A DNA stretch of 64,000 nt from an uncultured Candidatus Saccharibacteria bacterium. GTDB taxonomy: Bacteria > Patescibacteriota > Minisyncoccia > Phycocordibacterales > UBA9973. The stretch lies in assembly GCA_964645245.1 (NCBI GenBank), contig CAZYBS010000001.1:91388-155387 (forward strand). Reading direction: 5' to 3'. The notes beneath the pieces were generated by a model, which saw nothing but the letters and a program-made list of their open reading frames with translations, was not told the origin of the DNA and made no database searches. Of the stretch, positions 11,044 through 61,491 are shown piece after piece. Within the stretch, counting starts at the first letter, position 1; each line of letters starts with the position of its first letter. Made by a program: the position numbers and the translations under genes.

Positions 11044-11090
11044 ACCTCACCCTTGCCCTCTCCTTGCCAAGGAGAGGGTTGGGAGAGGTC
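11044..11090. repeat. GC-rich palindromic repeat element, family B, intergenic copy
   Basis: ACCTCACCCTTGCCCTCTCCTTGCCAAGGAGAGGGTTGGGAGAGGT. Same family as the in-frame copies inside jag (46932) and polA (59471). Confidence 0.7.
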
Positions 11091-11120
11091 ATGTCGCACA
11101 ATATTTGGTACAATTAAAGC

Positions 11121-12071
11121 ATGACATCCCTCAAGCAACTAAAAACTCAATTTTTGGAATATATAGAGATAGAAAAAGGCCGTTCGCTTAATACAGTAGA
11201 GAATTATGATCGTTACCTTGCTCGCTTTTTAAATTTTACAAAAAATGACAACCCTGTAAATATTACTGACACTATGGTGCGTGAATTCCGTTTGTGGCTC
11301 AACCGTCAGACTACCGGCAACAATAGAGCCACTGGGGAGACTTTATCCAAGAAAACTCAAAACTATTACTTAATAGCGTTGCGGGCATTTCTGAAGTATC
11401 TGGCCCGAGAAAATGTTAAGTCTATGCCGGCCGAACGTATAGAGTTGGCGAAAGTTGAAGAAAGGTCTCTTGACTTAATAACCGGCGTGGAATTGAAGAG
11501 GCTTCTGGGGTCACCCAAGGGCAATGACTTAAAAGACCTGCGAGACAAAGCCATCTTGGAACTTTTATTCTCTACCGGGTTGCGTGTTTCAGAATTATGT
11601 TCCCTAACTTCTGACATTGATTTAAGCTCGGAAGAATTATCTGTTCGCGGCAAGGGTGGAAAAGTACGCGTGGTTTTTATATCTTCTGATGCAAAAAATG
11701 CTGTAAAAAATTATTTAGCAGCCCGTAGAGACATGAGCGATGCTCTTTTTGTTCAAACCCCCTCTAACTCCCCCTTATCAGGGGGAGAGGGTTCCCCCCG
11801 CCCTGCGAAGGGAGGGGTTGGAGAGGGTCTGACTCGACGTTCTATAGAAAGAATAGTCAAACAACATGCGATAAAAGCGGGCATTTCGAAAAAAGTAAGT
11901 CCTCATACGTTGCGCCATATGTTTGCGACTGATTTGCTTGGCAACGGCGCTGACTTGCGTTCAGTGCAATCCTTGTTAGGCCATTCTAGTATCACCGCCA
12001 CGCAAATATACACCCACGTCACCGACAAACACTTACGCGATATCCATAAAAAATACCATAATAGAAAATAG
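11121..12071 (+). CDS. Tyrosine recombinase XerC/XerD-like, with an in-frame GC-rich repeat insertion
   Basis: Phage-integrase SAM-like N-domain. Catalytic core contains …GLRVSEL…, …HTLRHMFAT… and …LGHSSITATQIYTHV. The insert PLSGGEGSPRPAKGGVGEG is encoded by repeat DNA at 11758-11830. Confidence 0.85.
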   Translation: MTSLKQLKTQFLEYIEIEKGRSLNTVENYDRYLARFLNFTKNDNPVNITDTMVREFRLWLNRQTTGNNRATGETLSKKTQNYYLIALRAFLKYLARENVKSMPAERIELAKVEERSLDLITGVELKRLLGSPKGNDLKDLRDKAILELLFSTGLRVSELCSLTSDIDLSSEELSVRGKGGKVRVVFISSDAKNAVKNYLAARRDMSDALFVQTPSNSPLSGGEGSPRPAKGGVGEGLTRRSIERIVKQHAIKAGISKKVSPHTLRHMFATDLLGNGADLRSVQSLLGHSSITATQIYTHVTDKHLRDIHKKYHNRK

Positions 12072-13404: not shown

Positions 13405-13656
13405 CTAGGGGTGTGGGATCCAAATCATAGGAGCAGGCAGGGCTTCTTGCGAAGTCTGCCCTTTAACCGCACCGGTAACCGCGAACGCAAACGCCCAGAA
13501 TTCATCTACGAGAGTATCGAGCATTACATATGCTCCGAGTCCCTCAGACAAAGCTCTGACGTGCTGTTCAACGACGCGCTCCAATGCTTCTCTTTTCTCT
13601 GGCGGCAAGTCGGCCAACCAGATGGGCCGCGAACGGAGATCGATTAGTCTGTTCAT
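13405..13656 (-). CDS. GC-rich small protein (83 aa), hypothetical; a LexA box lies ~25 bp upstream
   Basis: AAGAGGAAAA ribosome-binding site. Helical, protein-like sequence (…EKREALERVVEQHVRALSEGLGAYVMLDTLVDEFWAF…). ~55% GC. Has its own terminator. Confidence 0.4.
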   Translation of the reverse strand: MNRLIDLRSRPIWLADLPPEKREALERVVEQHVRALSEGLGAYVMLDTLVDEFWAFAFAVTGAVKGQTSQEALPAPMIWIPHP

Positions 13657-13681
13657 GGTTTTCCTCTTGACTGTTGTAAAG

Positions 13682-13695
13682 GAACCGTTGTTCTG
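13682..13695. promoter_or_regulatory. Second Cheo-type LexA box (GAAC-N4-GTTC)
   Basis: gGAACcgttGTTCtg. It lies between the GC-rich ORF on the minus strand and the divergent TrmB-like gene. Confidence 0.4.
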
Positions 13696-13780
13696 TCGCG
13701 TTATTGCAACAGAATCTTACCCGATTACAATTTATCACTATTTGACAATGATTGATATAGTGTCGTATACTTACGACAAC

Positions 13781-14572
13781 ATGATAGAAAACATCTTAAA
13801 ATCACTTAGTTTCGACGAGGACGAAGTAAAGACATATCTTTACCTTTTAGAACGCGGACCTTTGACTGCTGGCGCTTTGGCAAAAAGTTTAGGCGTCCCT
13901 CGTTCCTCGATATATGGATTTCTAAAACGGCTCGCAGGCGATAACTTGGTGGTGGAGTCTCAAAAAAGCGGGATAAAAATATTTTCCGCTGAATTGCCAG
14001 AAAAAATAAATTTGTTGTTCAGTCAGAAAATGGAAATTTTACAGAAAGCACAAGACGACTACATAAAAATATTACCCGAACTGAAAAGTAAGAAGGGTGA
14101 AAAATATCAAACTCCAAAATTTCAAGTATTTGAGGGTGCGGAAGAATTAAAAAACGCCCTCAAAGACATGCTTTTATATCGTGACATAAAAACTCAAGCC
14201 TACTGGCCACAAAAAAAGATGGTGGAAATTTTGGGTGGAGAATTTTTCCGTTACCATAACCAGGAACGCATCAAAAATAACATTTCAGTACATGCAATTT
14301 GGCCACAACATCAAAAAGTGGAAGTTAAGAACCATCCGTATTTCGGCAGCGGCAAAGAATTTCTGCGTGAAATTCGTATCACTCCCCCAGGTATCGATTT
14401 TCATATGGGTTATTGGATTTATGGCAATAAAATTGTTTTTATTTCATCAACTCAAGAAAGTTTCGGCTTTATAGTACAAAGCCAAGAAATGGCGCAGATG
14501 TTAAAAACACAATTTGAAATCTTGTGGCAAATATCCAGGCCACTTCTAGATAAATCAAGAAAGTTTAACTAA
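13781..14572 (+). CDS. TrmB-family transcriptional regulator (paralog 2; start uncertain, alternatives at 13622 and 13748)
   Basis: wHTH segment SFDEDEVKTYLYLLERGPLTAGALAKSLGVPRSSIYGFLKRLAGDNLVV matches the N-domain of the other two TrmB-like ORFs. Confidence 0.5.
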   Translation: MIENILKSLSFDEDEVKTYLYLLERGPLTAGALAKSLGVPRSSIYGFLKRLAGDNLVVESQKSGIKIFSAELPEKINLLFSQKMEILQKAQDDYIKILPELKSKKGEKYQTPKFQVFEGAEELKNALKDMLLYRDIKTQAYWPQKKMVEILGGEFFRYHNQERIKNNISVHAIWPQHQKVEVKNHPYFGSGKEFLREIRITPPGIDFHMGYWIYGNKIVFISSTQESFGFIVQSQEMAQMLKTQFEILWQISRPLLDKSRKFN

Positions 14573-17215: not shown

Positions 17216-17368
17216 AGGATAAAACGTAAGTCCGCGCGTCAGCCGGACACATCGAGGCGAGCTTATTTCATAACTCGCCTCAACTGTAGCAAAGTATTTG
17301 CTTTGCCTGATGAGCTCAAAAGAGCGAAACGGATTATTAGTGATATAATTAATTTAATATATTCATAC

Positions 17369-17394
17369 CAGATAGCGCCTAAGGCGCTATCTGG
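17369..17394. promoter_or_regulatory. Perfect 12-3-12 palindrome CCAGATAGCGCCtaaGGCGCTATCTGG overlapping the ribosome-binding site of the Cys-rich ORF
   Basis: Read directly from the sequence. A related palindrome occurs at 43169-43224. Confidence 0.5.
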
Positions 17395-19234: not shown

Positions 19235-20932
19235 TTATTTCCTCACTCCATGCTTAACGTGCAGCTTTTCTATCTCCTCTTCTTCTAGTTCTTCCTTTTT
19301 CTCTTTTCCGCGTTCGCCCAGAGCTCGGAGCTCGGCATCACCAAGCATATTTAGAGATTTAGCCAGTTCGGAGAGGTGTTCCACGGTATTTTTCTCCGGC
19401 GCATCCAACACTTCTTCTAAGAGCGCGTGCAGAATCCAGCCCATTCTGGGTCCCGGCGCAATTTTCAATTCTTTCATCATAAATTCCCCGTTAATTTTCA
19501 GCTGACCGACAGAAATCGGGTCACGCAGCGCTTCTTCTATCATCGCAAAATATTTCCGCAGGCGATAGGGCGCTTCTTTTTTCTTCATGCCAACCCTATC
19601 ACACTCACGCACGCTCATTAGGAGCCAAATATTTTCTACACCTACTTTGGTAATAATTCTGCGCACCGCGGAAAGCGTTATTAATTCCGTATCGGAAAAA
19701 AACATATGATTGCGCACAAGCTTGGATACTAATTCAATTTCCTTTCTGGGAAATTTTAATCTTTCCATTATTTTTTTCGCCATTCGCGCGCCGATAACTT
19801 CATGGCCGTAAAAAGTATATTTCTTTTTAGTAGCTCCGCCAGTAAACAATTTATCAGGTCCTCGGAAAAAATCCCCAGACCGTGCTAAATTGTTCACCGG
19901 CTTCGCTACTTGGGCGGAGTTTGGGTGCTTTTGTGAAGGACCGACGTTGCGAAGCAGGAGATCCTGAGCAGAAGCACCAGACGATGCCAGTCTTCGTGTT
20001 CTGGGCTTCCCAATATCGTGCATCAGCGCGGCCAGTCTGATTTCAAGCGGCCAATTTTTATCTGCGGCATGCTGTACTGCGTGAAGTAAATGGTCCCAGA
20101 CATCATAAATATGTTCACCCAACTGCTTGCAACCTATCCCCTCCTCCAGTTCCGGAATAATATTTTTCAACAGTCCAAATTTTTGTAGCATTACAATTCC
20201 CATGGCAGGATTTGGCGACATAATTATTTTTACCAATTCATCACGAATCCTTTCGGCGGATATTTCTTCTATTAAGCTTGAATTCTTTAAAATATTCTCC
20301 GAAGTTTCATATGACACAGAAAAATTAAGTTGGCAAGCGAAGCGTACAGCCCGTATCATTCTCAAAGCATCTTCTTCAAAACGATCATTCGGAACCCCTA
20401 CCGCTCTTAAAGTTTTATTTTCAATGTCCTTTAGACCTCCATATAAATCTACCAAGTGTCCGTTAGGATGTCCTTTATGAATGCTGAATGCCATGGCATT
20501 TACAGTGAAATCACGTCTTTTAAGGTCATCTTCTAACTTATCACTGAATTTAACCTCATCCGGATGCCTAAAATCACCATATTTTGCTTCAATCCTGTAA
20601 GGAGTGACCTCAACAACAAAATTGGGTTCTAGGTTAGAGGTTCTAGGTTCTAGTGTTTCTTGTGAAACATTATTCTGTGACATTTCACGTGGAACTATGA
20701 CCCCTACAGTACCAAAAGCATTCTCGTAGACCGTCTTTTCGAAAAGACTAATAATTTGTTCTGGTTTAGCATTTGTTGTAACATCCCAATCTTTGGGTTC
20801 TATCCCCATCAAAAGATCACGAACACAGCCGCCAACTAGATAGGCTTCAAAACCGGCTTTCTCGAGTATATCCGTTACATGTGAAACCTCTTTGGGTATT
20901 TTTGGTATTAAATTTTTAGTATTTGGTTCCAC
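19235..20932 (-). CDS. cca: CCA-adding enzyme / tRNA nucleotidyltransferase with HD domain, carrying repeat-encoded inserts
   Basis: Pol-beta-type head (LVGGCVRDLLMG…DWDV) and an HD domain (LAALMHDIGKP). In-frame CTAGAACC-type and GACGTTGCGAAGCAGGAGATCCTGAG repeat copies. Confidence 0.8.
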   Translation of the reverse strand: MEPNTKNLIPKIPKEVSHVTDILEKAGFEAYLVGGCVRDLLMGIEPKDWDVTTNAKPEQIISLFEKTVYENAFGTVGVIVPREMSQNNVSQETLEPRTSNLEPNFVVEVTPYRIEAKYGDFRHPDEVKFSDKLEDDLKRRDFTVNAMAFSIHKGHPNGHLVDLYGGLKDIENKTLRAVGVPNDRFEEDALRMIRAVRFACQLNFSVSYETSENILKNSSLIEEISAERIRDELVKIIMSPNPAMGIVMLQKFGLLKNIIPELEEGIGCKQLGEHIYDVWDHLLHAVQHAADKNWPLEIRLAALMHDIGKPRTRRLASSGASAQDLLLRNVGPSQKHPNSAQVAKPVNNLARSGDFFRGPDKLFTGGATKKKYTFYGHEVIGARMAKKIMERLKFPRKEIELVSKLVRNHMFFSDTELITLSAVRRIITKVGVENIWLLMSVRECDRVGMKKKEAPYRLRKYFAMIEEALRDPISVGQLKINGEFMMKELKIAPGPRMGWILHALLEEVLDAPEKNTVEHLSELAKSLNMLGDAELRALGERGKEKKEELEEEEIEKLHVKHGVRK

Positions 20933-20934
20933 TT

Positions 20935-21447: not shown

Positions 21448-21547
21448 TACGGATACATTTTATCACATATAGTTTCGGAAAACAAGAAAATTCCGAAGAT
21501 GTTTATTGCATAAATAATGTGGAAATAATATAATAGGTCAGCTTATC

Positions 21548-21618
21548 GCGGTCATAGTTTAGTGGCAGAACACGATCTTGCCAAGATTGAGGCGCGGTTT
21601 CGATTACCGCTGGCCGCA
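21548..21618 (+). tRNA. tRNA-Gly (anticodon GCC), no encoded CCA
   Basis: Acceptor GCGGTCA/TGGCCGC (one G·U pair), anticodon stem CGATC/GATTG, loop TTGCCAA, T-arm GCGGT-TTCGATT-ACCGC. Confidence 0.75.
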
Positions 21619-22266: not shown

Positions 22267-22315
22267 CCCATTCGACAGGCTCAGGGTCATGGTGAATAAA
22301 ATTGAACCATGATAT
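22263..22315. repeat. Repeated hairpin element (gacccattc…GGGTCATGGTGA-loop-GAACCATGA), copy 1
   Basis: Nearly identical to 32137-32190. 8-bp stem TCATGGT/ACCATGA with a 12-nt loop. Confidence 0.55.
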
Positions 22316-28787: not shown

Positions 28788-31700
28788 GTGATTAAGAATG
28801 CGCAACATCTAAGAGGACTAAATAAACGGCAAAGAGAAGCGGCGAGTCATATGAAGGGTCCGCTGCTTATCGTTGCGGGAGCGGGAGCAGGAAAAACTAA
28901 AACAATAACGCATAGAATTGTAAATTTAATAAAGGAAGGAGTGCCTCCGGAGCGTATTTTGGCTGTCACTTTTACCAATAAAGCAGCCGAGGAGATGCGG
29001 GGGCGGATTAGCTCTGCAATAAAAGATAACTTCGTCGGTAATCCTTTTTCAGAGGTCCTCGGTTCTCCGGGTCCCTATCCCGGCCAGACCATCCGAAAAA
29101 GCATTACCGACTCCGTGCCTTTCGTCAGCACTTTTCACTCTTTGGGAGTTTTTATAATCAAAGAAAATGCAAAAATCTTGAAGCTGACTCGGTATTTTAG
29201 CATTTTGGACGAAGATGATTCAAAAACTCTCATCAAAGAAATTATCAAAGAGTTGGGCCACGATCCAAAAGAACATTCGCCCGGTAAAATAAGGGTGATA
29301 ATAAGCATTGAAAAAGGAAAATTTGTTACTCTGGAAAATTACAGGCAAAATATCCGGGGCTCTTTTCAGGAACTGGTAGCCAATGTATGGAAAATTTATG
29401 AAGAGAGAAAGGCAAAAGAGAATTCACTGGACTTTGATGACCTGCTTTTAAAGGCGACCAAACTATTAAAGGAAAATGAGCAGATTAGAAAAATTTATCA
29501 AGAAAGGTGGGAATATATCCATATTGACGAATATCAGGACACCAACGAAGTGCAATATTTAATGTCCAAACTTCTGTCTGAAAACAATAACAACATAGCT
29601 GTTGTAGGCGACACAGACCAATGTCTTATTAAAGGCACAAAAATAACAATGGCCGATAGCACTTTTAAACCCATTGAAAATATAAAAAGGGGCGACCTTG
29701 TGCTGTCAAATTATGGAAGCGGAGATTTTAGACCAGCTAAAGTTATTGGGAGAAAAAATCTAAAATTCAAGGGAAATTTAATCAAAATTAAAACAGAGAA
29801 AGGGAAAATTATTACCAGCACCCCCGATCATATTCACTTTGCCGGATATCGCCTTGGGCTAACTCCACAGATATATCTGAACTACTTAATGTATAAAAAA
29901 AATGCGGGTTGGCGCATAGGCACCACATCAATACATACAAAAGGGCAAAAGAAACCCGTAGTAGGATTTATACAAAGGTCCAACCAAGAACACGCCGATG
30001 CCACATGGGTCATCGCTACCCACAAAACACAAAGAGAGGCCCGCATAAAGGAATATCAGTTATCGCTGAGATATCAAATACCAACTTTGCCATTTGTACC
30101 TCGTAGGGGTTTTAGCATTAATGGTTACGTGCATGACAATACTGCCTTGAAAGAAATTTTTTCTTCTTTTAATACTGAAAATTCTGCTTTAAAACTACTC
30201 TCTGGGCTTGGTCTTTCACGAGACCATCCACATCATCAGCCTCAGGCTCGAAATGCGAACAGAAGAAATATAAATATTACTTTGTGCGCAGACAGGCGCG
30301 GCAAAAATCCAATGCATCTTATTTCAACATTTGGTAATGACGATATTGGTAGGAAAAAACTGGAGTCCTTTGGCTTTTCTGTCCGTCCAGCGAAAAAAAA
30401 CACAAAGAATTGGCGATTTGAGACAGTTCGAGCTGACTATGGAGAGGCTTACTTATTGGCTACAAAAATAGCTTCGGTCTTTTCCGAAACCAATCTTATA
30501 TTGAGTGCTCGACTTGGTGGTATGAAAACCAATTCTCGTGACGGCAACTCACTTCCACACCTGCCAGCCAGCTCTATTATGCCCGGCATGGCTCTTTTTG
30601 TTCAGGGCGGTTACGATATTGTTTCAAAAGTTTCACAGATCCCAACATCTAAAATAAAAGTGTTTGATCTTGATATAGAAAAAACCCATAATTTTATGGC
30701 AAATGATATAGTAACTCATAATTGTATTTACTCCTGGCGCGGAGCGAATTTAAAAAATATTTTGAGCTTTGAAAAAGATTATCCGAATGCGAAAATAATC
30801 CTCTTGGAGGAAAATTATAGGTCAACAAAAAATATTCTGGAAGCGGCCAACGTTATAATCAAAAAAAATAAATACCGGCCAGAAAAAAATTTATTCACAA
30901 AAAATAAAAGTGGCGAGAGAATTGGCCTCTATGAAGCGCTCAATGAAAATGACGAAGCGGACTTCGTGGCGACAAAAATTTTAGAAATAATGGACGGCTC
31001 CGTCTCTTCAAATTTTTTCTCGCTACGTACCGCCAAGCGTAATTCCTCACTCGAAAAAATTGAAGAAGACTTCGCTTTAGAAATTCAAAAAGGGGTTGGT
31101 AGTGATTTTTTGAATGGTGACGTTGCGAAGCAGGATATCCTGAGAAAAAATACTACCAACCCCTTTTTGTCAGAAATCGCAATCCTTTACCGGGCGAACT
31201 TTCAGTCGCGCGCGCTGGAGGAAGCAATGTTAAGATATAATATCCCATATCAAGTCTTGGGTGTTAAATTTTTTGAAAGAAAAGAAATTAAAGATACCCT
31301 GGCCTATCTGCGCGCCGCATTAAATAGAGACAGCCTCTCGGATATAAAAAGAATAATAAATTTCCCGGCGCGGGGCATCGGCAAGGCTACGCTGGCTAAA
31401 ATTTTTGCCACCGCCAGGGCGGGGCAAGCAAATGATATGGAAAATCTGCCGATAAAAATGAAAATTAAGATCAATAATTTCTACAAAATTCTGGAAGAAA
31501 TAAAAATAAAAATCGCGGAAGAAAAAGCGAGCGCGGTGATAAAATTCGTAGTCAAACATTCCGGCATCGAGAGAGAATTGGGGGAAGGCGGGGAAGAGGA
31601 GATGGAGAGACTGGCAAACATTAAAGAACTTGCGACCCTCGCCTTAAAATACGACAATCTGGCAAACGCAAAAGATAATATAAGCGGTATTGAAAGGCTT

Positions 31701-32138
31701 TTAGAGGATGCGGCGCTGGCATCAGACCAGGATTCGTTGATGATAAGTGAGGGCGTTGCCTCCGAGAAAAAGAAAAATAACGGGGTAAAATTGATGACCG
31801 TGCACGCCTCAAAAGGACTTGAGTTTAAATATGTTTTTGTCGTCGGACTGGAAGACGGACTATTCCCCGCCCGCAACGCCTCGCGTAGCGAGGCGGGCGG
31901 GCCCAATAAAAGAGACGAGGAGACAAAAAATAAAGAGGACTCCGAAGAAGAACGCAGGCTTTTTTATGTGGCAGTCACGCGCGCCAAAGAAAAATTATTT
32001 TTATCGTTCGCGAATTTCCGCACCATCTTCGGAGCCCTTCAAATAAACGCTCCATCGGAATTTATTTCCGATATTCCAGGAAACCTATTAGACCCCGTCG
32101 CTCACGAGCGACGGGGAGAAAAAATTATCTACATATGA
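28788..32138 (+). CDS. UvrD/PcrA-family superfamily-1 DNA helicase interrupted by an intein
   Basis: Walker A AGAGAGKTKTI, motif Ia TFTNKAAEEM, motif II IHIDEYQDTN, and …VGDTDQ[intein]CIYSWRGA (motif III). Later motifs follow. Confidence 0.85.
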   Translation: MIKNAQHLRGLNKRQREAASHMKGPLLIVAGAGAGKTKTITHRIVNLIKEGVPPERILAVTFTNKAAEEMRGRISSAIKDNFVGNPFSEVLGSPGPYPGQTIRKSITDSVPFVSTFHSLGVFIIKENAKILKLTRYFSILDEDDSKTLIKEIIKELGHDPKEHSPGKIRVIISIEKGKFVTLENYRQNIRGSFQELVANVWKIYEERKAKENSLDFDDLLLKATKLLKENEQIRKIYQERWEYIHIDEYQDTNEVQYLMSKLLSENNNNIAVVGDTDQCLIKGTKITMADSTFKPIENIKRGDLVLSNYGSGDFRPAKVIGRKNLKFKGNLIKIKTEKGKIITSTPDHIHFAGYRLGLTPQIYLNYLMYKKNAGWRIGTTSIHTKGQKKPVVGFIQRSNQEHADATWVIATHKTQREARIKEYQLSLRYQIPTLPFVPRRGFSINGYVHDNTALKEIFSSFNTENSALKLLSGLGLSRDHPHHQPQARNANRRNINITLCADRRGKNPMHLISTFGNDDIGRKKLESFGFSVRPAKKNTKNWRFETVRADYGEAYLLATKIASVFSETNLILSARLGGMKTNSRDGNSLPHLPASSIMPGMALFVQGGYDIVSKVSQIPTSKIKVFDLDIEKTHNFMANDIVTHNCIYSWRGANLKNILSFEKDYPNAKIILLEENYRSTKNILEAANVIIKKNKYRPEKNLFTKNKSGERIGLYEALNENDEADFVATKILEIMDGSVSSNFFSLRTAKRNSSLEKIEEDFALEIQKGVGSDFLNGDVAKQDILRKNTTNPFLSEIAILYRANFQSRALEEAMLRYNIPYQVLGVKFFERKEIKDTLAYLRAALNRDSLSDIKRIINFPARGIGKATLAKIFATARAGQANDMENLPIKMKIKINNFYKILEEIKIKIAEEKASAVIKFVVKHSGIERELGEGGEEEMERLANIKELATLALKYDNLANAKDNISGIERLLEDAALASDQDSLMISEGVASEKKKNNGVKLMTVHASKGLEFKYVFVVGLEDGLFPARNASRSEAGGPNKRDEETKNKEDSEEERRLFYVAVTRAKEKLFLSFANFRTIFGALQINAPSEFISDIPGNLLDPVAHERRGEKIIYI
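29622..30722 (+). mobile_element. Intein (~367 aa) inserted in helicase motif III of uvrD/pcrA
   Basis: Block A CLIKGTKITMADS, block B TPDHIHF, block F VFDLDIEKTHNFMAN, block G DIVTHN, followed by extein Cys+1 (CIYSWRGA). The central ~200 aa lacks a clear LAGLIDADG/HNH motif. Confidence 0.8.
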
Positions 32139-32190
32139 CCCATTCAAAAAATTCAGGGTCATGGTGATAGAATAGAACCATGACACACAA
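32137..32190. repeat. Repeated hairpin element (gacccattc…GGGTCATGGTGA-loop-GAACCATGAC), copy 2; its 3' arm contains the ksgA start codon
   Basis: Nearly identical to 22263-22315. Confidence 0.55.
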
Positions 32191-33091
32191 AGCAAAAAGA
32201 TCACTTGGACAAAATTTTTTGAAATCAGAAATAGCGCTCCGGAAGATTATTGAAGCGGGAGAGGTGAAAAAAGATGACGTAATTCTTGAAATTGGTCCGG
32301 GGAAGGGAGCACTGACAGAAAAATTACTAGAGCGTATTTACCCCCACCCGGCCTCCCCCTATGTAGGGGGAGGTGCCAAAGGCGGAGGGGGTATGGTCAT
32401 AGCCGTAGAAAAAGACCGCGAGCTTTTTGAGTTTTTGAAAGTTAAATTTGAAAAGGAAATAAATATACGTTCTCTTATACTAGTACATGATAACATACTA
32501 AATTTCAATACTAGAACCTATAACCTAGAACCTAGAACCTATAAAGTGATTGCCAACATCCCCTACAACATTACCGGCGCAATTTTAAAAAAATTCCTGA
32601 CAGAAGAAAATCAGCCTGAAAGCATGGTATTGATGGTTCAAAACGAGGTGGCCAAAAGAATTACCACCCCAAACCCCTCCTCAACAAGGAGGGGAGGGAA
32701 AGAAAGCATATTGTCTATTTCGGTGAAAGCGTACGGGGAGCCGAAAATGATAATGAAGGTGGAAAAGCGATATTTTTCGCCCCAGCCGAAAGTGGACTCG
32801 GCTGTAATTACCATAAAAAACATTTCCCGAAAAATATTTGAAACCCCACCCCAACCCTCCCCAAAGGAGAGGGAAGAATCCAAATCCTCCCCCTTGGGGG
32901 GAGGTCGGGAGGGGGTAAACGAGGATAAATTTTGGAAAATAGTAAAAGCAGGCTTTGCGCACAAGCGAAAAAAACTCTCCAGCAACCTAAAAGGCATTCT
33001 TGCCTGTCAAGGGGCGCCCTTGACACTGGTTAAAGACAAAAGGGCAGAGGATTTAGCGCTTGCAGACTGGATTGCGCTTGCGAAAATGTGA
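32180..33091 (+). CDS. rsmA: 16S rRNA (adenine1518/1519-N6)-dimethyltransferase RsmA/KsgA with four in-frame repeat insertions
   Basis: QNFL…, …LEIGPGKGALT… and …IANIPYNIT… are KsgA motifs. Inserts: IYPHPASPYVGGGAKGGGGM, TRTYNLEPRTY, PNPSSTRRGGKES and PQPSPKEREESKSSPLGGGREGVN. Confidence 0.85.
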   Translation: MTHKAKRSLGQNFLKSEIALRKIIEAGEVKKDDVILEIGPGKGALTEKLLERIYPHPASPYVGGGAKGGGGMVIAVEKDRELFEFLKVKFEKEINIRSLILVHDNILNFNTRTYNLEPRTYKVIANIPYNITGAILKKFLTEENQPESMVLMVQNEVAKRITTPNPSSTRRGGKESILSISVKAYGEPKMIMKVEKRYFSPQPKVDSAVITIKNISRKIFETPPQPSPKEREESKSSPLGGGREGVNEDKFWKIVKAGFAHKRKKLSSNLKGILACQGAPLTLVKDKRAEDLALADWIALAKM

Positions 33092-39569: not shown

Positions 39570-40217
39570 ATGCAAACACCAATAGATTTACTGCAAATAA
39601 AGATTGAAAAAGCCAGAGCAGCCTTGCCGGCCGAAACTCTCAATGCCATTGCCGCTGTTGATTGGAAGGCAGCCATTCTGGGGATGAGAGCTAAAAAAGG
39701 ATATACCTTTGAGCAATTGGGGGATTTAGAGCTGGAAACAGAATTATTGCTCTGCGGCCTTTTAGCTCCCGGTGGTTATCCGAAGGAATTGGAAAACAGA
39801 ATGAAAATCTCCAGAGCTCAAGCAAATGAATTGGTAAATGAAATGAATGACTTAGTTTTTAAAAAGATAAGAGAAGAATTAATCAAGAATACTGAAAGAA
39901 AAAAAATATTCGCAAATAAGATGACCCCCCCGCTCCGACCTGAGTCGAAGCACTCCCCCTTAGCAGGGGGAGAGGATAAAGCCTCCCTTGATAAGGGGAG
40001 GTTGGAGGGGTTTGGGGAGAAAAAGGAATCATTACCAATACCGGGGAAACTAGAACTTGAAACAGCCCATCCAATATTAGCGCAAAAATTATCCGGTTCT
40101 TTTCAAATTCCGATGGTAAAAACCGATCACTCCTTGAAAAATCTCCAGCCCTCTTCCACCCAGAACGGAACAATCCCAAAAAAGCCGGTCGATCCTTATA
40201 GGGAAATACCGGAATAA
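39570..40217 (+). CDS. Small hypothetical protein (tandem paralog B) with an in-frame GC-rich repeat insertion
   Basis: Paralogous N-terminus. The segment PPLRPESKHSPLAGGEDKASLDKGRLEGFGEKK is encoded by repeat DNA at 39935-40020. Confidence 0.4.
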   Translation: MQTPIDLLQIKIEKARAALPAETLNAIAAVDWKAAILGMRAKKGYTFEQLGDLELETELLLCGLLAPGGYPKELENRMKISRAQANELVNEMNDLVFKKIREELIKNTERKKIFANKMTPPLRPESKHSPLAGGEDKASLDKGRLEGFGEKKESLPIPGKLELETAHPILAQKLSGSFQIPMVKTDHSLKNLQPSSTQNGTIPKKPVDPYREIPE

Positions 40218-45278: not shown

Positions 45279-46667
45279 ATGTCAAGAAGAAATCTTATAC
45301 TTTTAATAATAATCTTGGTTGCCGTGGTAATTACGGTTTTTGGATTTTTATATTTACGCCAAGGAAAAATTGTGCCGGGAGAAGAAGGTCCAGGCACCAA
45401 TTTTATTTCACGATTCAACCCATTTGGAAGTAAAACGACTCCTCCAGTTGTGGCGCCTCCAATTGACGTTTCAGGATACCAGCCCGATTCTGGAGAAGAA
45501 ACACCAAAACTGAAACTAATGAAAGTTTCCAGTATGCCTATAGCAGGGTTTGCGGTGTTTATAAAAGAAAGATTAAAAGAGGTGCCGATAGCTCCCCTCC
45601 TTGTGGAGGAGGGGGTTGGGGGTGGTGATAGTTCTACAACACCACCTCGCCCTTCGGGCACTCCTCCTCGGAAAGGAGGAGAGAAAGCCAAGCCTACCCC
45701 ACCACTGACTGAATTTGTGCCAGCTTTAAGATATGCAGAGCGAGCGACGGGAAATATCTATCAAACTTTCACGGATAAAATAGAAGAAAGAAAATTCTCA
45801 GGAACGACAATACCCAAAGTATATGAGGCATATTTTGGCAATCGCGCAGAGTCTGTAATTATGCGATATTTAAAAGCTGATGACAAAACCATCGAAACTT
45901 TTGTCGGTACTCTTCCGAAAGAATACTTGGGGGGAGACACAACAAAAAACAATGAAATAAAGGGGTCTTTTTTACCCAATAATATTAAAGATATAAGTCT
46001 TTCGCCGGATGCTTCAAAAATATTCTACTTGTTTAGCAGTGGAGTTAATTTGGGAAACAATATAGTAGGTACAACTGCGAGCTTGTTGGATAATAAAAAA
46101 GTTCAAGTTTTTGATTCCCCTTTCACCGAATGGCTATCATTTTGGCCAACTAGTAAAATGATTACCCTTTCCACTAAACCTTCCAGTAATGTCCCCGGAT
46201 ATATGTACATGCTCGACCTGGATAAGAAAAATCTAACTAAAATTTTAGGCGATATAAATGGACTCACTACTCTGACAAGCCCTAACGGGAAATTAGTTCT
46301 TTACGGTGACAACAGTTTATCACTGTATATCTATCATACCGATAACAGAAATTCTGATTTATTGGGGGTAAAGACTTTGCCTGAAAAATGCGTTTGGGGT
46401 AAAGTAAGTGATGTTATTTATTGTGCTGTGCCAAAATTAATTGACCTAGGCGCATATCCGGATACCTGGTATCAAGGAGAAGTATCTTTTAGTGATCAGT
46501 TTTGGAAAATAGACATCAAAAGCGGAAATGCAACTTTAATAATGGACCCAGTTACAGTTACCGCCGAAGAAATTGACGGTATTAAACTCGATCTAGACGA
46601 AAGTGAAAATTACTTATTTTTTGTAAATAAAAAAGATTCTTTTCTCTGGAAGTTGGATTTGAAATAA
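45279..46667 (+). CDS. Membrane-anchored hypothetical protein with a beta-propeller-like C-terminal region and an in-frame repeat insertion
   Basis: N-terminal TM. Repeat-encoded LLVEEGVGGGDSSTTPPRPSGTPPRKGGEKAKP. The C-terminal half resembles a TolB-like propeller. Confidence 0.45.
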   Translation: MSRRNLILLIIILVAVVITVFGFLYLRQGKIVPGEEGPGTNFISRFNPFGSKTTPPVVAPPIDVSGYQPDSGEETPKLKLMKVSSMPIAGFAVFIKERLKEVPIAPLLVEEGVGGGDSSTTPPRPSGTPPRKGGEKAKPTPPLTEFVPALRYAERATGNIYQTFTDKIEERKFSGTTIPKVYEAYFGNRAESVIMRYLKADDKTIETFVGTLPKEYLGGDTTKNNEIKGSFLPNNIKDISLSPDASKIFYLFSSGVNLGNNIVGTTASLLDNKKVQVFDSPFTEWLSFWPTSKMITLSTKPSSNVPGYMYMLDLDKKNLTKILGDINGLTTLTSPNGKLVLYGDNSLSLYIYHTDNRNSDLLGVKTLPEKCVWGKVSDVIYCAVPKLIDLGAYPDTWYQGEVSFSDQFWKIDIKSGNATLIMDPVTVTAEEIDGIKLDLDESENYLFFVNKKDSFLWKLDLK

Positions 46668-46676: not shown

Positions 46677-47183
46677 TTACAAATTTCCTATATACTTGAT
46701 AACCACCCGGCGAGAGGGCCCAAAACCGACCGATTCAGTTTTTAGGTCGGTCGCATCAGATAAAAATTCATGCACAATTCTGCGTTCAAAAGCTGACATT
46801 GGGTCAACTTCTATGCTTGACTTGAAATATCTGGCTCGTTCAGACATCATATGAGCTACTGTGCGAATGTTCTCCACGCGCTTCTTTTGGAAACCATTGA
46901 TATCAATCAGGATAGATTTCTCTAATTCTGACCTCACCCCTTCGCCCCTCTCCTTATTAAGGAGAGGGGTTGGGGAGAGGTTCTTTTCAATTATTCTACG
47001 AACCAGATGATTTAATGCATAAAGTGCCTCACCGTCATGTCCAATAAAAAAATGCGGTTCATTTACTTCAACTGAAAACCAAGTATTATGCGGGCTATCT
47101 TCAATAACGGTAATTTGGGTCGTTTTTATAGTGGTTTTTTCAATCAGCTCTTTTATTAAATTTTGCATTTCATCCTTATTCAT
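46677..47183 (-). CDS. jag: Jag/KhpB-like RNA-binding protein (KH + R3H) with an in-frame repeat insertion
   Basis: R3H motif …ERRIVHEFLSDATDLKTESVGFGPSRRVVI. The insert NLSPTPLLNKERGEGVRSE is encoded by a family-B repeat. Confidence 0.7.
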   Translation of the reverse strand: MNKDEMQNLIKELIEKTTIKTTQITVIEDSPHNTWFSVEVNEPHFFIGHDGEALYALNHLVRRIIEKNLSPTPLLNKERGEGVRSELEKSILIDINGFQKKRVENIRTVAHMMSERARYFKSSIEVDPMSAFERRIVHEFLSDATDLKTESVGFGPSRRVVIKYIGNL

Positions 47184-55786: not shown

Positions 55787-55949
55787 AATATGCAGTTTAA
55801 CATTTTTTATTGACTGAGGAGTTGAAGGAGGTGAACGGCTTATGGGCGCGAGGCACTTCTTGAGGAGTACCCTTCAGGGGGAGGCGGATGAGTTCATCTC
55901 CTCCTTATGGAGGAGGAGTGCCGAAGGCGAGGTGGTGATTAAATAGTTA

Positions 55950-55988
55950 CCACCCCCAACCCCCTCCTCAATAAGGAGGGGAGGACTA
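55950..55988. repeat. GC-rich palindromic repeat element, family C, abutting the ruvB stop codon
   Basis: CCACCCCCAACCCCCTCCTCAATAAGGAGGGGAGGAC. Same family as 32667-32700 in ksgA and, in reverse orientation, 45588-45636. Confidence 0.65.
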
Positions 55989-57347: not shown

Positions 57348-59048
57348 TTATTCTTCGTTTAGGTCCACTACGCTTTGCACTTCTTCCAGCGAGGTAATTC
57401 CTTTTAAGATTTTTACCATGCCGTCTTGGCGCATAGAAAGTATTCCTTGCTGGCTGGCCACTTTTTTAATTTCACGCTCGCTTGGATTTTCCGGCATTAT
57501 TTTTTCTATCGCCTCGTCGGTTTTAATCGCCTCAAAGACGCCTATGCGTCCACTGTAACCGATTGAATTGCATTTCTCACAGCCTACCGGAGAGAAAATT
57601 TTAAAAGGTGCACCGGGCTTTAGGTTGTATTTTGAAAAATCTTTACCTTCTTCCTTCATGCTATCCAAAACTAATTTTATAGTTTTAGCTTCTTTGGGAA
57701 TAGGGGTATTTTCTTTTTTGCAAAGCTTGCAGAGCCTGCGTACCAAACGCTGAGCCATGGAAAGAGATAAAGCTGAAACCATAATCTTTGGATTTACTCC
57801 AAGGTCAATCAGACGGGGGATAACACCAGCGGCATTGTTGGTGTGCAGGGTAGAGAAAACCATGTGACCAGTCAGCGATGATTGCACCGCAATTTCGGCC
57901 GTTTCGCCGTCGCGGATTTCTCCGACCATTATTACATCCGGATCTTGGCGCAAGGCCGAACGCAATCCTTCCGGGAAAGTATACTTCCTTTTCAAGCTTA
58001 TTTGCGTTTGAGTTATACCGGGAAGGTGGTATTCCACCGGGTCTTCAATTGTGATTATGTTTATTTCCGGGGAATATATTTTTCGTAAAAATGCGTAGAG
58101 GGTTGTTGTTTTTCCAGACCCGGTCGGACCGGTGACCAGAATTAAGCCATTTGGTTTTGCAATTTCATTTTTAACAATTTCAAAAAGGTAAGACTCAATT
58201 CCCAATTCTTCAAGGTCCACCTGGATGGATTTTGGGTCCAAGATGCGCATCACGATTGATTCACCGTAAGAGCCGGGAATAAGCGAAGAACGGATACTTA
58301 TTTCTTCCGGCCCTTCCATAATATTAAAACGCCCGTCTTGCGCTATCTTGGAAGTTAGCTTCATGCCGGAGAGGAGCTTGATGCGTGAATTGAGCAAGTT
58401 ATATATATCAAGCCCAAAGAAATTTATGTCTTGCAGCACACCATCCAGCCGCAGCCGCAGCCGTCCTCGGTCTTTTTCCGGCTCGATGTGTATGTCCGAA
58501 GCTTTGATGGCGATTGCTCCGGCCAGGATTATTTCCAGCAGATGAGAAATTTTGTGAATTTTATTTCCTTCCAGCGCTTCAATTACCAGCTTTTCAATAT
58601 CTTGAATGTGTTGTATGTTTTTTGCAATCTCTCTCAAAACTTCCCCAGAGATGTCCAGACCGCCGATTTTTGAGCTTTCGGCCATGGAAATTTCTTTATA
58701 TCTGTCCCAGACTTTATTTAGACTGGCGTTGGAGGCCATATAAAAGGCAGGCACTAAATTCTTTCTTTCCATTGCATCTTTAAGACTTTCTATCAACTCC
58801 GGAGTCGGAGAACGCACCGCTATGAAAATGTTTTTTCCAAAAAGTTTAAAAGGTGCGACCTTCATTTCAATGGCCTCTTTCTCCGATATTGCCCTGAGCG
58901 CTTCATTGTCTATGCCCAGGCGATACAGGTCAATATAAGGGAGGCCGTATTTGGACTCCGCTAACGTCGCCACCAGCTGCTCTTCTTCTTGTTTATGCAA
59001 GTCCTCCAGCTGCTTATTTTGTTTTTCTTCGTCAAAATTCGCCATCAT
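57348..59048 (-). CDS. GspE/PilB-family type II secretion / type IV pilus assembly ATPase
   Basis: N-terminal GSPII_E_N-like domain. Walker A LILVTGPTGSGKTTTL, Asp box, Walker B …VIMVGEIRD, His box. Confidence 0.85.
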   Translation of the reverse strand: MMANFDEEKQNKQLEDLHKQEEEQLVATLAESKYGLPYIDLYRLGIDNEALRAISEKEAIEMKVAPFKLFGKNIFIAVRSPTPELIESLKDAMERKNLVPAFYMASNASLNKVWDRYKEISMAESSKIGGLDISGEVLREIAKNIQHIQDIEKLVIEALEGNKIHKISHLLEIILAGAIAIKASDIHIEPEKDRGRLRLRLDGVLQDINFFGLDIYNLLNSRIKLLSGMKLTSKIAQDGRFNIMEGPEEISIRSSLIPGSYGESIVMRILDPKSIQVDLEELGIESYLFEIVKNEIAKPNGLILVTGPTGSGKTTTLYAFLRKIYSPEINIITIEDPVEYHLPGITQTQISLKRKYTFPEGLRSALRQDPDVIMVGEIRDGETAEIAVQSSLTGHMVFSTLHTNNAAGVIPRLIDLGVNPKIMVSALSLSMAQRLVRRLCKLCKKENTPIPKEAKTIKLVLDSMKEEGKDFSKYNLKPGAPFKIFSPVGCEKCNSIGYSGRIGVFEAIKTDEAIEKIMPENPSEREIKKVASQQGILSMRQDGMVKILKGITSLEEVQSVVDLNEE

Positions 59049-59082
59049 GAAGAATTATAGCGTAAGTGGTATAATTTACATA

Positions 59083-61491
59083 ATGCTCAAAGAAAATGAT
59101 AAGAATAGTAAAACTTTAGTATTATTGGATGCCCATGCCATCATCCATCGCGCTTATCATGCGTTGCCGGAATTTTTATCATCCCAAGGCGAGCCCACCG
59201 GGGCATTATACGGCCTCTGCAGTATGTTGATGAAAATAGTTGCCGACTTAAAACCGGATTATGTTGTAGCCTGTTATGACTTGCCGCAGAAAACATTTAG
59301 GCATGAAGCATATGATAACTACAAAGCCGGTAGAGCCAAAACAGACGATGGCCTAATTTTACAACTAAAAAATTCTCGTTCCATATTTGAAGCCTTCAAT
59401 ATTCCTATGTACGACAGCCCGGGTTTTGAAGCGGATGATGTATTGGGAACGATAGTTGAGAAAATGAAGAACCTCACCCTTCACCCTCTCCTTAATAAGG
59501 AGAGGGTTGGGGAGAGGTTGAACATAATTATTGCCTCCGGTGATATGGACACGATGCAATTGGTGGATGATAAAAAAGTGCAAGTCTATACCCTTAAAAA
59601 AGGCATCAATGAAACTGTTTTATATGATGAAGATGCGGTCGTCGCACGGTTTGGATTTAAGCCGGAACTTTTACCGGATTATAAGGGTTTGCGCGGCGAT
59701 CCGTCAGACAATATTGTTGGCATTAAAGGCATCGGGGAAAAGACAGCCACGACTTTAATCACGACTTTTGGCACGATTGAGGAAATTTACAGAAAAATAA
59801 AAAAGAGTCCAGAAATCTTCTCTAAAGCCAAGATTAGTCCCAGGATTATAGAATTAATTAAAAATAATGAAGAAGAGGCCCTATTTTCAAAAACCCTGGC
59901 CAAGATTAGGACCGACGCGCCGATAGATTTCACCTTACCCCAAAAAACTTTTTGGGAGAATGTAGATTTAAAAAAGATAGAACAAGTTTTTGCCCTATTT
60001 GAATTTCGGAGTTTGTTTACGCGCTTGAAAAGTTTTTTTAGAAATAATCACTTCGAAAATTCTCTAAACTCGCCAGCTGTAAATAATATAGATCAAAAGC
60101 AATTACAGGAAGCAGGCATTGCTCTCTGGCTTATTAATTCTGATATAGCCAATCCAAATTTAGAAGATATTTTATTGTTTGCGAAAACTGATTCTTTCCA
60201 AATTGCTTATGAATATATTTTCAAAACATTAAAAGATAAAAATCTGGATAAAGTGTACGAAGAAATAGAAAAACCGATAATACATACGGTAAAAGAGATG
60301 GAAGATTACGGAATTTTGATAGATAAGAAATACTTTGAAAATTTAGGATATGAATATCATAAAGAATTGGATAAACTTACCGCCAGAATATATAAAATGG
60401 CGGGAGTAGAGTTTAATATAAATTCTCCAAAGCAACTAGGGGAAGTGCTTTTTGGCAAAATGGGGATGAAATCGAGCAGGAAGAGGGGCGAGCGTTTCTC
60501 TACTAAGGTTTCCGTCTTAGAAGAACTGGAAGAAGAAAATCCGATTATCAAAGAAATATTAGCTTATCGGGAATTGCAAAAACTGCTTTCCACCTATATT
60601 GACGTAATTCCCAAAATGGTTGGAAAAGATGGCCGACTGCATGCAAAATTTTTACAAAATGGCGCGACCACGGGAAGATTTTCTTCGCAAGATCCTAATT
60701 TACAAAACTTACCAATTAAGACAGAACTGGGGAAGAGAATCCGAGGGGGATTTATCGCGCCAAAGGGTTGTAAACTTTGCGCTTTTGATTATAGTCAGAT
60801 TGAACTACGAGTCGCGGCTATGCTCTCGGGGGACAAAAAAATGACAGCAATATTCCGTGAGCGAAAAGACATTCACTCGGGTGTAGCATCTTTTGTTTTT
60901 GGCGTGCCGATAGAAAAAGTGGATAGTGAGATGCGTCGCAAGGCAAAGGTGATAAATTTCGGCATCCTTTATGGTATGGGAATTTCGGCTTTACGGAAGA
61001 ACCTCGGAGGTAGCCGCCAAGAGGCGCAGAAGTTTTACGATAATTATTTCAATCAATTTTCCGGTGTACGGGATTATTTGGAAAAAGTGAAAGCTTTTGC
61101 TCTTAAAAATTCTTACACCGAAACTTTATTCGGTCGGCGCCGGAATTTCCCGAATATAAACTCTAGGATTCCATTTTTGAAAAATATGGCGCAGCGCACC
61201 GCTACTAATGCGCCGATTCAGGGTACAGCCACGGCGGATATTATTAAGCTGGCCATCAGGTGTGTAGAAGAAGATTTGAAAAGCGCAAGGCTATTAAATA
61301 GGGTTCATCTAGTGCTGCAAATACACGACGAGCTGGTTTATGAGATAGAAGATAGTATTTTACAAAAAGCTGATAAAATAATAAAAAATGCCATGCAGGG
61401 CGTACTTTCCAGGTCTTATTTACATTATCAGACCGAGATTCCGCTGGAAGTGCATTCCAGTTCGGGGGATAACTTCGGAGAGATTAAATAG
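59083..61491 (+). CDS. polA: DNA polymerase I (5'-3' exonuclease + polymerase domains) with an in-frame family-B repeat insertion
   Basis: 5' nuclease N-terminus (LVLLDAHAIIHRAYHALP…). Pol A motifs (…RRKAKVINFGILYGM… and …LQIHDELVYE…). The insert LTLHPLLNKERVGERL is encoded at 59471-59520. An alternative start at 59047 would overlap the pilB start head-to-head. Confidence 0.85.
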   Translation: MLKENDKNSKTLVLLDAHAIIHRAYHALPEFLSSQGEPTGALYGLCSMLMKIVADLKPDYVVACYDLPQKTFRHEAYDNYKAGRAKTDDGLILQLKNSRSIFEAFNIPMYDSPGFEADDVLGTIVEKMKNLTLHPLLNKERVGERLNIIIASGDMDTMQLVDDKKVQVYTLKKGINETVLYDEDAVVARFGFKPELLPDYKGLRGDPSDNIVGIKGIGEKTATTLITTFGTIEEIYRKIKKSPEIFSKAKISPRIIELIKNNEEEALFSKTLAKIRTDAPIDFTLPQKTFWENVDLKKIEQVFALFEFRSLFTRLKSFFRNNHFENSLNSPAVNNIDQKQLQEAGIALWLINSDIANPNLEDILLFAKTDSFQIAYEYIFKTLKDKNLDKVYEEIEKPIIHTVKEMEDYGILIDKKYFENLGYEYHKELDKLTARIYKMAGVEFNINSPKQLGEVLFGKMGMKSSRKRGERFSTKVSVLEELEEENPIIKEILAYRELQKLLSTYIDVIPKMVGKDGRLHAKFLQNGATTGRFSSQDPNLQNLPIKTELGKRIRGGFIAPKGCKLCAFDYSQIELRVAAMLSGDKKMTAIFRERKDIHSGVASFVFGVPIEKVDSEMRRKAKVINFGILYGMGISALRKNLGGSRQEAQKFYDNYFNQFSGVRDYLEKVKAFALKNSYTETLFGRRRNFPNINSRIPFLKNMAQRTATNAPIQGTATADIIKLAIRCVEEDLKSARLLNRVHLVLQIHDELVYEIEDSILQKADKIIKNAMQGVLSRSYLHYQTEIPLEVHSSSGDNFGEIK

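Follow-up and report, generated by a model that had tools for sequence, protein, structure and literature searches.

GC-rich palindromic repeats with intrastrand-triplex architecture lie in frame within conserved genes of a Parcubacteria bacterium

In Escherichia coli, a short repeat described first as BoxC, then as the potential intrastrand triplex (PIT) element (Hoyne et al. 2000, as cited in Holder et al. 2015, PMC4666352), and then as TM_ECO represents the class II intrastrand triplex motif, with the published pattern CCCTCNCCC N3-6 GGGNGAGGG N3 GGGNGAGGG (PMC4666352). Circular dichroism and nuclear magnetic resonance showed that the E. coli sequence, as an isolated single strand, folds into a stable triplex in vitro; in vivo it gave no footprint, it acts as neither promoter nor terminator, and it is tied to locally variable loci (PMC4666352). 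Copies in strain MG1655 are “always located intergenically” and are not found on phages, plasmids, or transposons, and class II motifs are abundant in cyanobacteria too (PMC4666352). Bacteria of the candidate phyla radiation (CPR) were, as far as can be told from its date, absent from that 2015 survey. The present study concerns families of GC-rich palindromic elements in the genome of a small-genome Parcubacteria (CPR) bacterium, analyzed over a 64-kb stretch with a GC content of ~40% (contig CAZYBS010000001.1, positions 91,388 to 155,387; here “the window”). Four of these families, A to D, probably represent small, nonautonomous repeats of the BoxC/PIT/intrastrand-triplex class that, together with unrelated hairpin families, have inserted repeatedly in this genome and its relatives and have persisted where protein loops tolerate them. 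The architecture itself is already published; the CPR case differs in its mostly intragenic, in-frame placement.

Element families and three-part architecture

A first-pass annotation of the window listed 11 GC-rich elements in four families, and all 11 are present in the sequence at the coordinates given. Short-word self-BLAST of the window recovers the same four families at 92–96% identity over 24–37 nt. Family A pairs 4398–4433 with 32338–32373 (92% over 36 nt); family B pairs 46946–46982 with 59484–59519 (95% over 37 nt) and adds a copy at 11056; family C joins copies at 32667, 45592, and 55949 (93–94% over 30–35 nt), that at 45592 being reversed; and family D pairs 11767 with 39952 (96% over 24 nt). 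The matches extend into the nonpalindromic flanks. Real as its copies are, the original list missed a third, mirror segment in the elements and several other hairpin families. Perfect GC-rich hairpins with a stem of at least 7 account for 44 records in the window, against 1.25 in shuffled sequence. When folded as single-stranded DNA in ViennaRNA, which models hairpins only, and compared with 200 dinucleotide shuffles, most copies gave z-scores of −2.3 to −5.4 and beat all or nearly all of the shuffles. Weak scores were obtained for A1 (−0.9), D1 (−1.7), and D2 (−0.4), because a shuffled sequence of C-runs and G-runs folds well too.

The class II motif search covered the window and 80 related loci (L001–L080), with 30 shuffles as the random control for the window. 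Across this DNA there are 56 hairpins in which an arm of C and T pairs with an arm of G and A, 13 of them recorded in the window, where stems measure 8–11 bp and loops 3–5 nt. Nearly all of the 56 bear an extra segment, confined to one of their sides. Read on the strand that has the purine arm 3′, this segment is a G-rich trailer set off by a spacer of 2–4 nt (usually 3), and its sequence is the purine arm in mirror order, G facing G and either T or A facing A; the complementary strand shows it as a C-rich leader, for example ACCTCACCCC. The mirrored third segment is perfect in 29 of 55 cases and has at most one mismatch in 44 of 55, whereas swapping trailers among arm types (2000 permutations) yielded a mean of 3.6 perfect mirrors and a maximum of 10. 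Likewise, trailers average 0.98 mismatches as found and 2.32 ± 0.16 when swapped. Templated copying cannot generate such a mirror repeat, and an antiparallel purine-motif triplex needs exactly this arrangement.

Complete class II motifs number 13 at 10 loci in the window, three copies of family B being two-sided, against none in the 30 shuffles. Element A1, intergenic at 4381..4436 (+ strand) between ORFs 3594-4160(-) and 4525-4962(-), illustrates the layout, with a pyrimidine arm CCTCCCCCT, a loop, a purine arm AGGGGGAGG, the spacer CTG, and the mirror trailer GGTAGGGGT. The two-sided form is seen in B1 (11043..11090, not assigned to a strand; z = −4.95), which is intergenic, ~30 nt upstream of the xerC start, and in which the triplex motif can be read on either strand. 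Counting as intragenic any motif inside an open reading frame (ORF) of at least 120 aa, ORFs contain 7 of the 10 loci of the window and, in related CPR DNA, 26 of 33. Per base pair, the intergenic density is higher, since 3 of the 10 loci fall in the ~8% of the window outside long ORFs under a permissive ORF mask. Motif density is 1.56 per 10 kb in the window and 0.26 in its relatives, where only 18 of the 80 loci contain any motif and individual densities span 0 to ~2.5 per 10 kb.

The published TM_ECO pattern has no exact match among these elements; B1 and B3 fit it with at most one substitution per 9-nt block, and the arms of families A, C, and D differ from it. BLAST of B1, a short low-complexity query, against E. 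coli genomes in a 28-Gb database gave no match. In E. coli genomes the TM_ECO consensus occurs at a median of 18 places per genome, with no annotated feature among the matches listed. The BoxC/TM_ECO consensus also occurs at 66 places on E. coli plasmids, despite the report of no plasmid association in the 2015 paper.

Insertion sites, sharing, and conservation

Among the products of the window, Pfam matches identify KsgA/RsmA, a XerC-like tyrosine recombinase, Jag (R3H), PolA, RuvB, and RuvC; ORFs 39570 and 45279 have no Pfam family. The KsgA of the window is 100% identical to a protein encoded on a “Parcubacteria group bacterium” contig of up to 221 kb. The genomes compared are about equidistant from the window (KsgA-based protein identity 54–70%), the next-best KsgA homologs, from Nomurabacteria/Paceibacteria, being 66–68% identical. 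Alignment with orthologs revealed clean presence and absence at loop-coding sites of KsgA, PolA, XerC, and UvrD, which upholds the proposal that the elements are insertions.

The case is seen most fully in ksgA/rsmA (32180..33091, + strand), which encodes 303 aa where insert-free orthologs have 251–260 aa, and which was aligned with 120 homologs and, in a second comparison, with 78 orthologous loci from species-representative genomes. At site 1 lies A2 (32337..32397, − strand), a ~57-nt family A unit, TTTACCCCC...GGGGGTAT, that is read as IYPHPASPYVGGGAKGGGG. C1 (32663..32700, − strand) occupies the R-I...KES loop with the peptide TTPNPSSTRRGG, and the composite D2 (32838..32915, + strand) occupies the inter-domain linker, where a degenerate B-like module at ~32843–32873 accompanies a complete motif at 32886–32915. 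The columns of insert 1 (IYPHPASPYVGGGAKGG) and insert 2 (PNPSSTR) are filled in ~10% of the 120 homologs, and the linker of the third insert is filled in 40–70%. The A2 site is empty in Bacillus subtilis KsgA (6ifs), which has a gap at insert 1, and B elements are found at the linker site in other genomes. In an AlphaFold2 model of KsgA (mean predicted local distance difference test score, pLDDT, 77.7), residues 56–68 and 234–242, corresponding to inserts 1 and 3, are coil with pLDDT <50. The four KsgA inserts, ~22% of its length, that the first-pass annotation had counted thus reduce to three sites, one of them composite, and an excess of ~45–50 aa, or 15–16% of the 303 aa. Probably the fourth of that count, a tandem repeat at 32500–32545 (CTAGAACCTATAAC-like, peptide NLEPRTY) is not an insertion relative to orthologs, since at least 70% of homologs have residues in its columns. 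Peptides are indeed added by the elements, as had been stated, but by ortholog comparison they measure ~7–25 aa rather than 11–30 aa.

Other genes carry elements as well. The composite D1 lies in the XerC-like recombinase gene (11757..11830, − strand; peptide TPSNSPLSGGEGSPRPAKGGVGEGL) and comprises a complete motif at 11757–11787 followed by a second hairpin at 11796–11817; one XerC ortholog (L073) is without an insert at this site, and two others have different inserts. The two-sided B3 (59470..59520, no strand assigned) is read as LTLHPLLNKERVGERL in the PolA 5′-nuclease domain. Here the empty site reads IVEKYKK-DK-NLNIII, and 43 of 120 orthologs have inserts of 5 aa or more, which fall into at least eight types; B3 is missing from most of the 120 and common to the closest ones (80–83% identity), and different element types occupy its site in other orthologs. 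The polA ORF as listed begins at TTG and overlaps a pilB-like gene on the other strand (57348–59048) in the region 58951–59090; its true start is probably at ~59083, because homology begins near residue 45. B2, also two-sided (46930..46984, no strand assigned), is in jag, the R3H protein gene, and is read as LSPTPLLNKERGEGVRS. The two-hairpin composite D3 (39935..40020, + strand; ORF 39570) sits in a linker that is hypervariable among orthologs, and it is thus only a putative insert. C3x in ORF 45279 (45588..45690, + strand), larger than first described, is a ~100-nt composite of a family C motif (45594–45626), a GGTGGTG...CACCACC hairpin, and a module consisting of CACCTCGCCCTTCGGGCA and a CTCCTCCT hairpin. 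The ruvB–ruvC spacer (55887..55988, − strand) holds two elements: a hairpin, CTCCTCCT...AGGAGGAG, at 55898–55918, and C2, whose family C motif (55949–55981) starts 4 nt past the ruvB stop codon (55986–55988).

Hairpin families other than A to D are present in the UvrD/PcrA gene, which lies directly upstream of ksgA. It contains E1, an 86-nt hairpin element (29030..29115, + strand; z = −5.4); F1, a further repeat element (31035..31169, + strand) with GACGTTGCGAAGCAGGAGATCCTGAG and a 25-nt inverted repeat; H1, a GC-rich nested hairpin insert (31854..31909, + strand; peptide ARNASRSEAGGP; z = −4.5); and a smaller GC-rich hairpin insert at 31413–31433. E/F-family material recurs in the CCA-adding/poly(A) polymerase gene (19829..19968, − strand). 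G1, a double hairpin TCCGCC-AAA-GGCGGA / TCCGCC-TCG-GGCGGA, occupies the last codons of the PNPase gene (7822..7856, − strand), and the SpoU methylase gene has a related copy, G2 (63716–63752). The peptide AKGGSASGG is an insert in other KsgA and PolA orthologs. An unbiased gap scan, applied to every window gene with at least five orthologs in the fetched loci and counting inserts of at least 4 aa, showed that the window-specific inserts of UvrD and KsgA are GC-rich strong hairpins, a property not shared by the short AT-rich gaps; in the CCA-enzyme gene and ORF 36592 the scan flagged a few inserts, which are mixed and fold less strongly.

Each intragenic copy lies within an uninterrupted ORF, so that the claim of a retained reading frame stands. 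The ~16 intragenic elements examined all add a multiple of three bases and have no in-frame stop codon; LLERIYPHPASPYVGGGAK and MKNLTLHPLLNK are examples of predicted peptides that would span insert junctions. Three to five of the six frames are open in the elements, compared with two to three in random segments of equal length, and stop-free reading is favored because an all-pyrimidine or all-purine arm cannot hold a stop codon.

A few loop positions recur as hotspots. The same positions in KsgA, UvrD, and PolA host many unrelated GC-rich palindromic inserts (L001–L080, P0002–P0240), examples being PRHGGAG (= CCCCGCCATGGCGGGG), PSAAKAKAG, FFSGPRFSGSLSRPDHS, GTLGRSDGDGQRKFSAENFRG, and SAKGGSASGG. 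The shortest KsgA homolog has 251 aa and the longest 363 aa. In the window and L001–L080, host sequence usually extends the purine arm, away from the trailer, as a purine tract rich in A (AAAAGAGAG and GGAAGAAATAAAA are examples), and empty hotspots are Lys/Asn/Glu-rich; the A-rich flank could reflect a target preference or merely the composition of loop-coding DNA.

The same elements are shared between genes, genomes, viruses, and plasmids. The ~57-nt A unit is found, 91% identical and in the same frame, at the PolA hotspot of a metagenome contig (L129), and its asymmetric right half occurs in 17 metagenome stretches, six at the PolA site, one antisense in KsgA site 4, and several intergenic. 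C3x matches the KsgA site-4 insert of L011 over 92 nt (86% identical), D1 matches L004 8904–8968, outside ksgA, over 65 nt (91% identical), and KsgA site 4 has family B in two reading frames, depending on the genome. The exact B architecture is present in 48 IMG/VR viral stretches of 34–64% GC, and family B is also found on plasmids of the cyanobacteria Pseudanabaena and Synechocystis. The elements are therefore not specific to low-GC reduced genomes. One 7.3-kb viral contig of 45% GC (L083, IMGVR_UViG_3300048592_001291) carries five B motifs in the same orientation with nearly identical loops. The family E core has no exact match in viral contigs. An A-like copy in L134/L139 was considered as lying within a 5S rRNA gene and rejected, as there was no 5S match at gathering or E <= 1. 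No paper describing palindromic in-frame inserts in CPR/Patescibacteria, or the motif strings, was found in the literature searched.

Old copies are strongly conserved. Orthologous copies are 91–95% identical in DNA where their 150-nt flanks are 65–82% identical; the C1 copy in L010, for example, is 91% identical with flanks at 70–74%. Sliding-window identity peaks at up to 0.98, and the peak is confined to the element. For E1 (orthologous copies 91–95%), identity falls to ~0.6–0.7 within ~50 nt rightward, and to the left lies a conserved UvrD N-terminal stretch with an identity of 0.76–0.87. Family E as a whole has an invariant 40-nt core, flanked by GCTTTTTC/GAAAAAGC, within outer stems that are locus-specific yet complementary, and it is read in three frames/orientations in different proteins. 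That the elements are more conserved than their flanks in relatives that are equidistant points to constraint on the nucleotide sequence and not on the peptide, and the reading of one family in three frames or orientations likewise places the conservation at the nucleotide level.

Several further features of the window may be recorded. The UvrD/PcrA gene (ORF 28788-32138) also encodes a 367-aa intein (aa 279–645, window 29622–30722), which starts with CLIKG, ends with THN followed by C, matches Pfam Intein_splicing, and is missing from 68 orthologs. A type IV secretion-like cluster at 34082–46667 encodes a PrgI-family protein, a VirB4/TraG-type ATPase, and a TrbC/VirB2-like pilin fused to a YkuD domain; several of its large ORFs have no Pfam family, and two of these carry repeat elements. 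Another palindrome family, CCAGATAG(C/A)GC..GC(G/T)CTATCTGG, is represented at 17368–17394, just upstream of ORF 17403, and at 43179–43224, spanning the stop of the VirB4/TraG-like gene; these palindromes may be terminators or another repeat, and they have no match in the related loci. The cumulative GC skew has its minimum at ~20000–24000, beside a tRNA cluster, and gene orientation flips there from mostly − on the left to mostly + on the right, a pattern that resembles a replication origin; ORFs labeled as putative dnaA and dnaN in the first-pass annotation (48725 and 50213) lie ~27 kb from this minimum. Finally, there are three paralogs of TrmB-family regulators (2806–3597, 13622–14572, and 15796–16584), two of which share inverted DNA matches (3199–3225/16177–16203, 27 nt, 96%; 3441–3540/15862–15961, 100 nt, 83%).

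Origin of the elements and competing explanations

The explanation that we favor, repeated insertion of small BoxC/PIT-class repeats and of unrelated hairpins, can be put as a series of steps. An element with an arm of C and T only, a loop of 3–5 nt, a complementary arm of G and A only, a spacer of 2–4 nt (usually 3), and a mirroring G-rich segment would insert, and genic copies would survive only where the DNA is A-rich and encodes a tolerant surface loop or linker, at recurring hotspots. A surviving copy would add a stop-free multiple of three bases, and the survivors would be read as Pro/Ser/Leu ... Gly/Glu/Lys/Arg loops. Of these steps, the comparisons establish repeated insertion and filtering toward permissive loop-coding sites, along with conservation of the nucleotide sequence. 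The inserts are probably translated, because all ~16 elements add whole codons without stops, which neither excision nor bypass would need. A triplex or hairpin may form in vivo, and spread may have combined a structure-dependent step in single-stranded DNA with homologous recombination of filled alleles. Filled alleles have altered flanking residues; together with the shared old copies, these fit recombination of filled alleles, and transposition would fit equally. The same peptides at the same positions in distant relatives, which the first-pass annotation had named as evidence for ancestral features, were found in part: several inserts are shared at the same position by orthologs of 54–83% identity, so some of the insertions are old and inherited.

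Several observations weigh against this explanation. Holder et al. (2015, PMC4666352) saw no evidence that the E. coli sequence forms a stable triplex in vivo. No transposase, REP-associated tyrosine transposase (RAYT), or other candidate mobilizer was detected by Pfam over ~47 ORFs of the window, and no consistent direct repeat that would represent a target-site duplication was found beside copies of A, B, or E. Several inserts lie at identical junctions in genomes only 54–83% identical, so that much of the pattern may reflect old vertical inheritance and not ongoing mobility, and in a neighbor-joining tree of 121 KsgA sequences the insert types are scattered and the tree is star-like, leaving gains and losses unseparated. 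The strong conservation of old copies is unlike simple selfish junk. Sense-strand G·T and A·C mismatches number 39 and 35, respectively, with no bias, and structure or selection at the level of the mRNA, considered as a candidate, was dropped when this test gave no support.

The strong conservation could instead mean that the elements are functional DNA signals, for recognition and uptake or for recombination and repair, which spread by uptake and homologous recombination and not by transposition, the protein loops being a by-product. Old copies greatly exceed the adjacent coding DNA in conservation, synonymous sites included, and the core of family E is invariant within variable, complementary outer stems. 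The altered flanks of filled alleles are as expected for allele replacement, the host genes often serve genome or RNA maintenance (UvrD, PolA, XerC, the RuvB spacer, KsgA, the CCA enzyme, and PNPase), a type IV pilus ATPase gene is present, and the transposase search was negative. We nevertheless consider this unlikely. The elements belong to many unrelated families and not to one motif, they are insertions of 20–100 nt and not point-mutational motifs, and the occurrence of family B on cyanobacterial plasmids and in phage contigs of 34–64% GC argues against a lineage-specific receptor. In addition, Maher’s group found PIT elements to be without effect on conjugation, promoter activity, or terminator activity (PMC4666352).

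The low complexity of the arms, which are C/T and G/A runs with few possible sequences, invites the explanation that hairpins arise locally and repeatedly by mutation, through template switching or foldback synthesis at A-rich tracts, and that the families are convergent. The different hairpins at the same hotspots across lineages would agree with this, as would the locus-specific yet complementary outer stems of family E and the published link of the motifs to local instability (PMC4666352). Long nonpalindromic segments are, however, shared between copies: the 57-nt A unit (91%) in two genes, the 92- and 65-nt composites, and the 86-nt E element (95%). Exact multipart B elements occur in 48 viral stretches, and the mirror repeat lies beyond what templated copying can produce. 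Local mutation is decidedly improbable as the source of these families.

That the inserts are ancestral, lineage-specific protein loops under protein-level selection, with incidental palindromy, is very improbable and is largely refuted. It draws on the recurrence of the same peptides at the same positions, namely YPHPASPYVGGG in four KsgA homologs, PxPSSTR in ~12, and PLLNKER in the closest PolA sequences. The same nucleotide sequences, however, recur between genes and in the coding sequence of unrelated proteins, with varying frame and orientation, and their conservation covers synonymous sites and exceeds that of the upstream UvrD N-terminal stretch; most orthologs are without the inserts, which are predicted to be disordered. 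We give least credence to the idea that the inserts are untranslated, being removed from the mRNA or bypassed by ribosomes like yeast mitochondrial byp: stable GC-rich hairpins in an AT-rich genome would suit it, with nothing direct in its favor, but the whole codons and missing stops of all ~16 intragenic elements would be unneeded, the intergenic A1 differs in length from the genic A unit, and the elements have neither splice-like boundaries nor a match in Rfam. At both gathering and E-value thresholds, Rfam found tRNAs only in the window and left the elements unmatched.

Significance and relation to described repeats

The elements link two literatures, that on intrastrand triplex (BoxC/PIT) repeats, which were deemed intergenic and whose biology is unexplained, and that on protein-coding palindromes such as those of Rickettsia. 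In the CPR, these repeats are a common source of in-frame insertions in core enzymes, KsgA, PolA, UvrD, and XerC among them, and explain part of the variation in protein length, including the 251–363 aa of KsgA homologs, with consequences for gene calling, ortholog alignment, phylogenomic trimming, and structure prediction. The recurrent hotspots and a conservation above that of the host gene make the origin and function of the repeats testable by comparative data. A more speculative and rather doubtful extension is that the BoxC-type triplex motifs and conserved-core hairpins of Parcubacteria/Paceibacteria are portable “loop cassettes,” traded across phyla among bacteria, phages, and plasmids and recognized by a putative, conserved cellular or phage machinery. 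Were it correct, recognition would explain the 91–100% nucleotide identity of old copies, the cassettes would be a major and so far undescribed source of CPR protein-length variation, remodeling the surface loops of essential enzymes at a few hotspots, and they would give intrastrand-triplex DNA its first natural context with an effect that selection can act on.

Palindromes within coding sequence are familiar from organelles. Yeast mitochondria contain GC clusters and byp elements, the latter bypassed and not translated, and coding palindromes occur in the mitochondria of Nematomorpha (PMC6649704). Like these, the elements of the window are GC-rich or perfect palindromes within coding genes of AT-rich reduced genomes, and they are unrelated to them in sequence. 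Miniature inverted-repeat transposable elements offer a second comparison: family A has the termini TACCCCC/GGGGGTA, but no consistent duplication or parent insertion sequence was found, and most one-sided elements are without a terminal inverted repeat. The small dispersed repeats of heterocystous cyanobacteria (Elhai et al. 2008) are reportedly mobile and ~21–27 nt long, insert without obvious target duplication, and enter genes and other repeats by an unknown mechanism; their sequences and their host group differ from those considered here. Repetitive extragenic palindromic (REP) sequences and REPINs are GC-rich imperfect palindromes of 20–40 nt, multicopy and often paired, which are thought to move as single-stranded hairpins (PMC3116915, PMC3733652). 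The present elements are likewise short, GC-rich, multicopy palindromes; however, REP sequences are extragenic, with a GTAG/CGTC head and a RAYT gene, whereas these elements are mostly intragenic, with the termini ACC.../...GGT, and no Y1 transposase or RAYT is present in the 64-kb window.

The first-pass annotation likened the pattern to Rickettsia palindromic elements (RPEs; Ogata et al. 2000, 2002, cited in PMC3733652 and PMC10969869), which reportedly are ~100–150 bp long, are not of the GC-run/triplex type, and are restricted to Rickettsia and relatives. In behavior the likeness is sound: both are in-frame palindromic repeats in conserved genes of a reduced genome, absent from orthologs, encoding surface peptides, falling into several families, and having no known transposase. 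In family it fails, as the elements measure 35–100 nt, are found across phyla, and have a Parcubacteria host, a difference drawn from the description of RPEs and not from comparison with an RPE consensus, and BoxC/PIT/TM_ECO is closer. With the latter the elements share the C-rich arm, the 3–6-nt loop, the G-rich arm, the 3-nt second loop, and the mirroring G-rich segment, as well as occurrence in either orientation, two-sided “palindromic” pairs, no associated transposase, and locally variable sites. They differ from E. coli BoxC in the arm sequences of families A, C, and D, in the placement of 7 of the 10 window loci within genes and in frame, and in the presence of family B in viral contigs and on cyanobacterial plasmids, in contrast to BoxC as reported. 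An intergenic location is where the E. coli copies sit, and it is not part of the definition of the motif.

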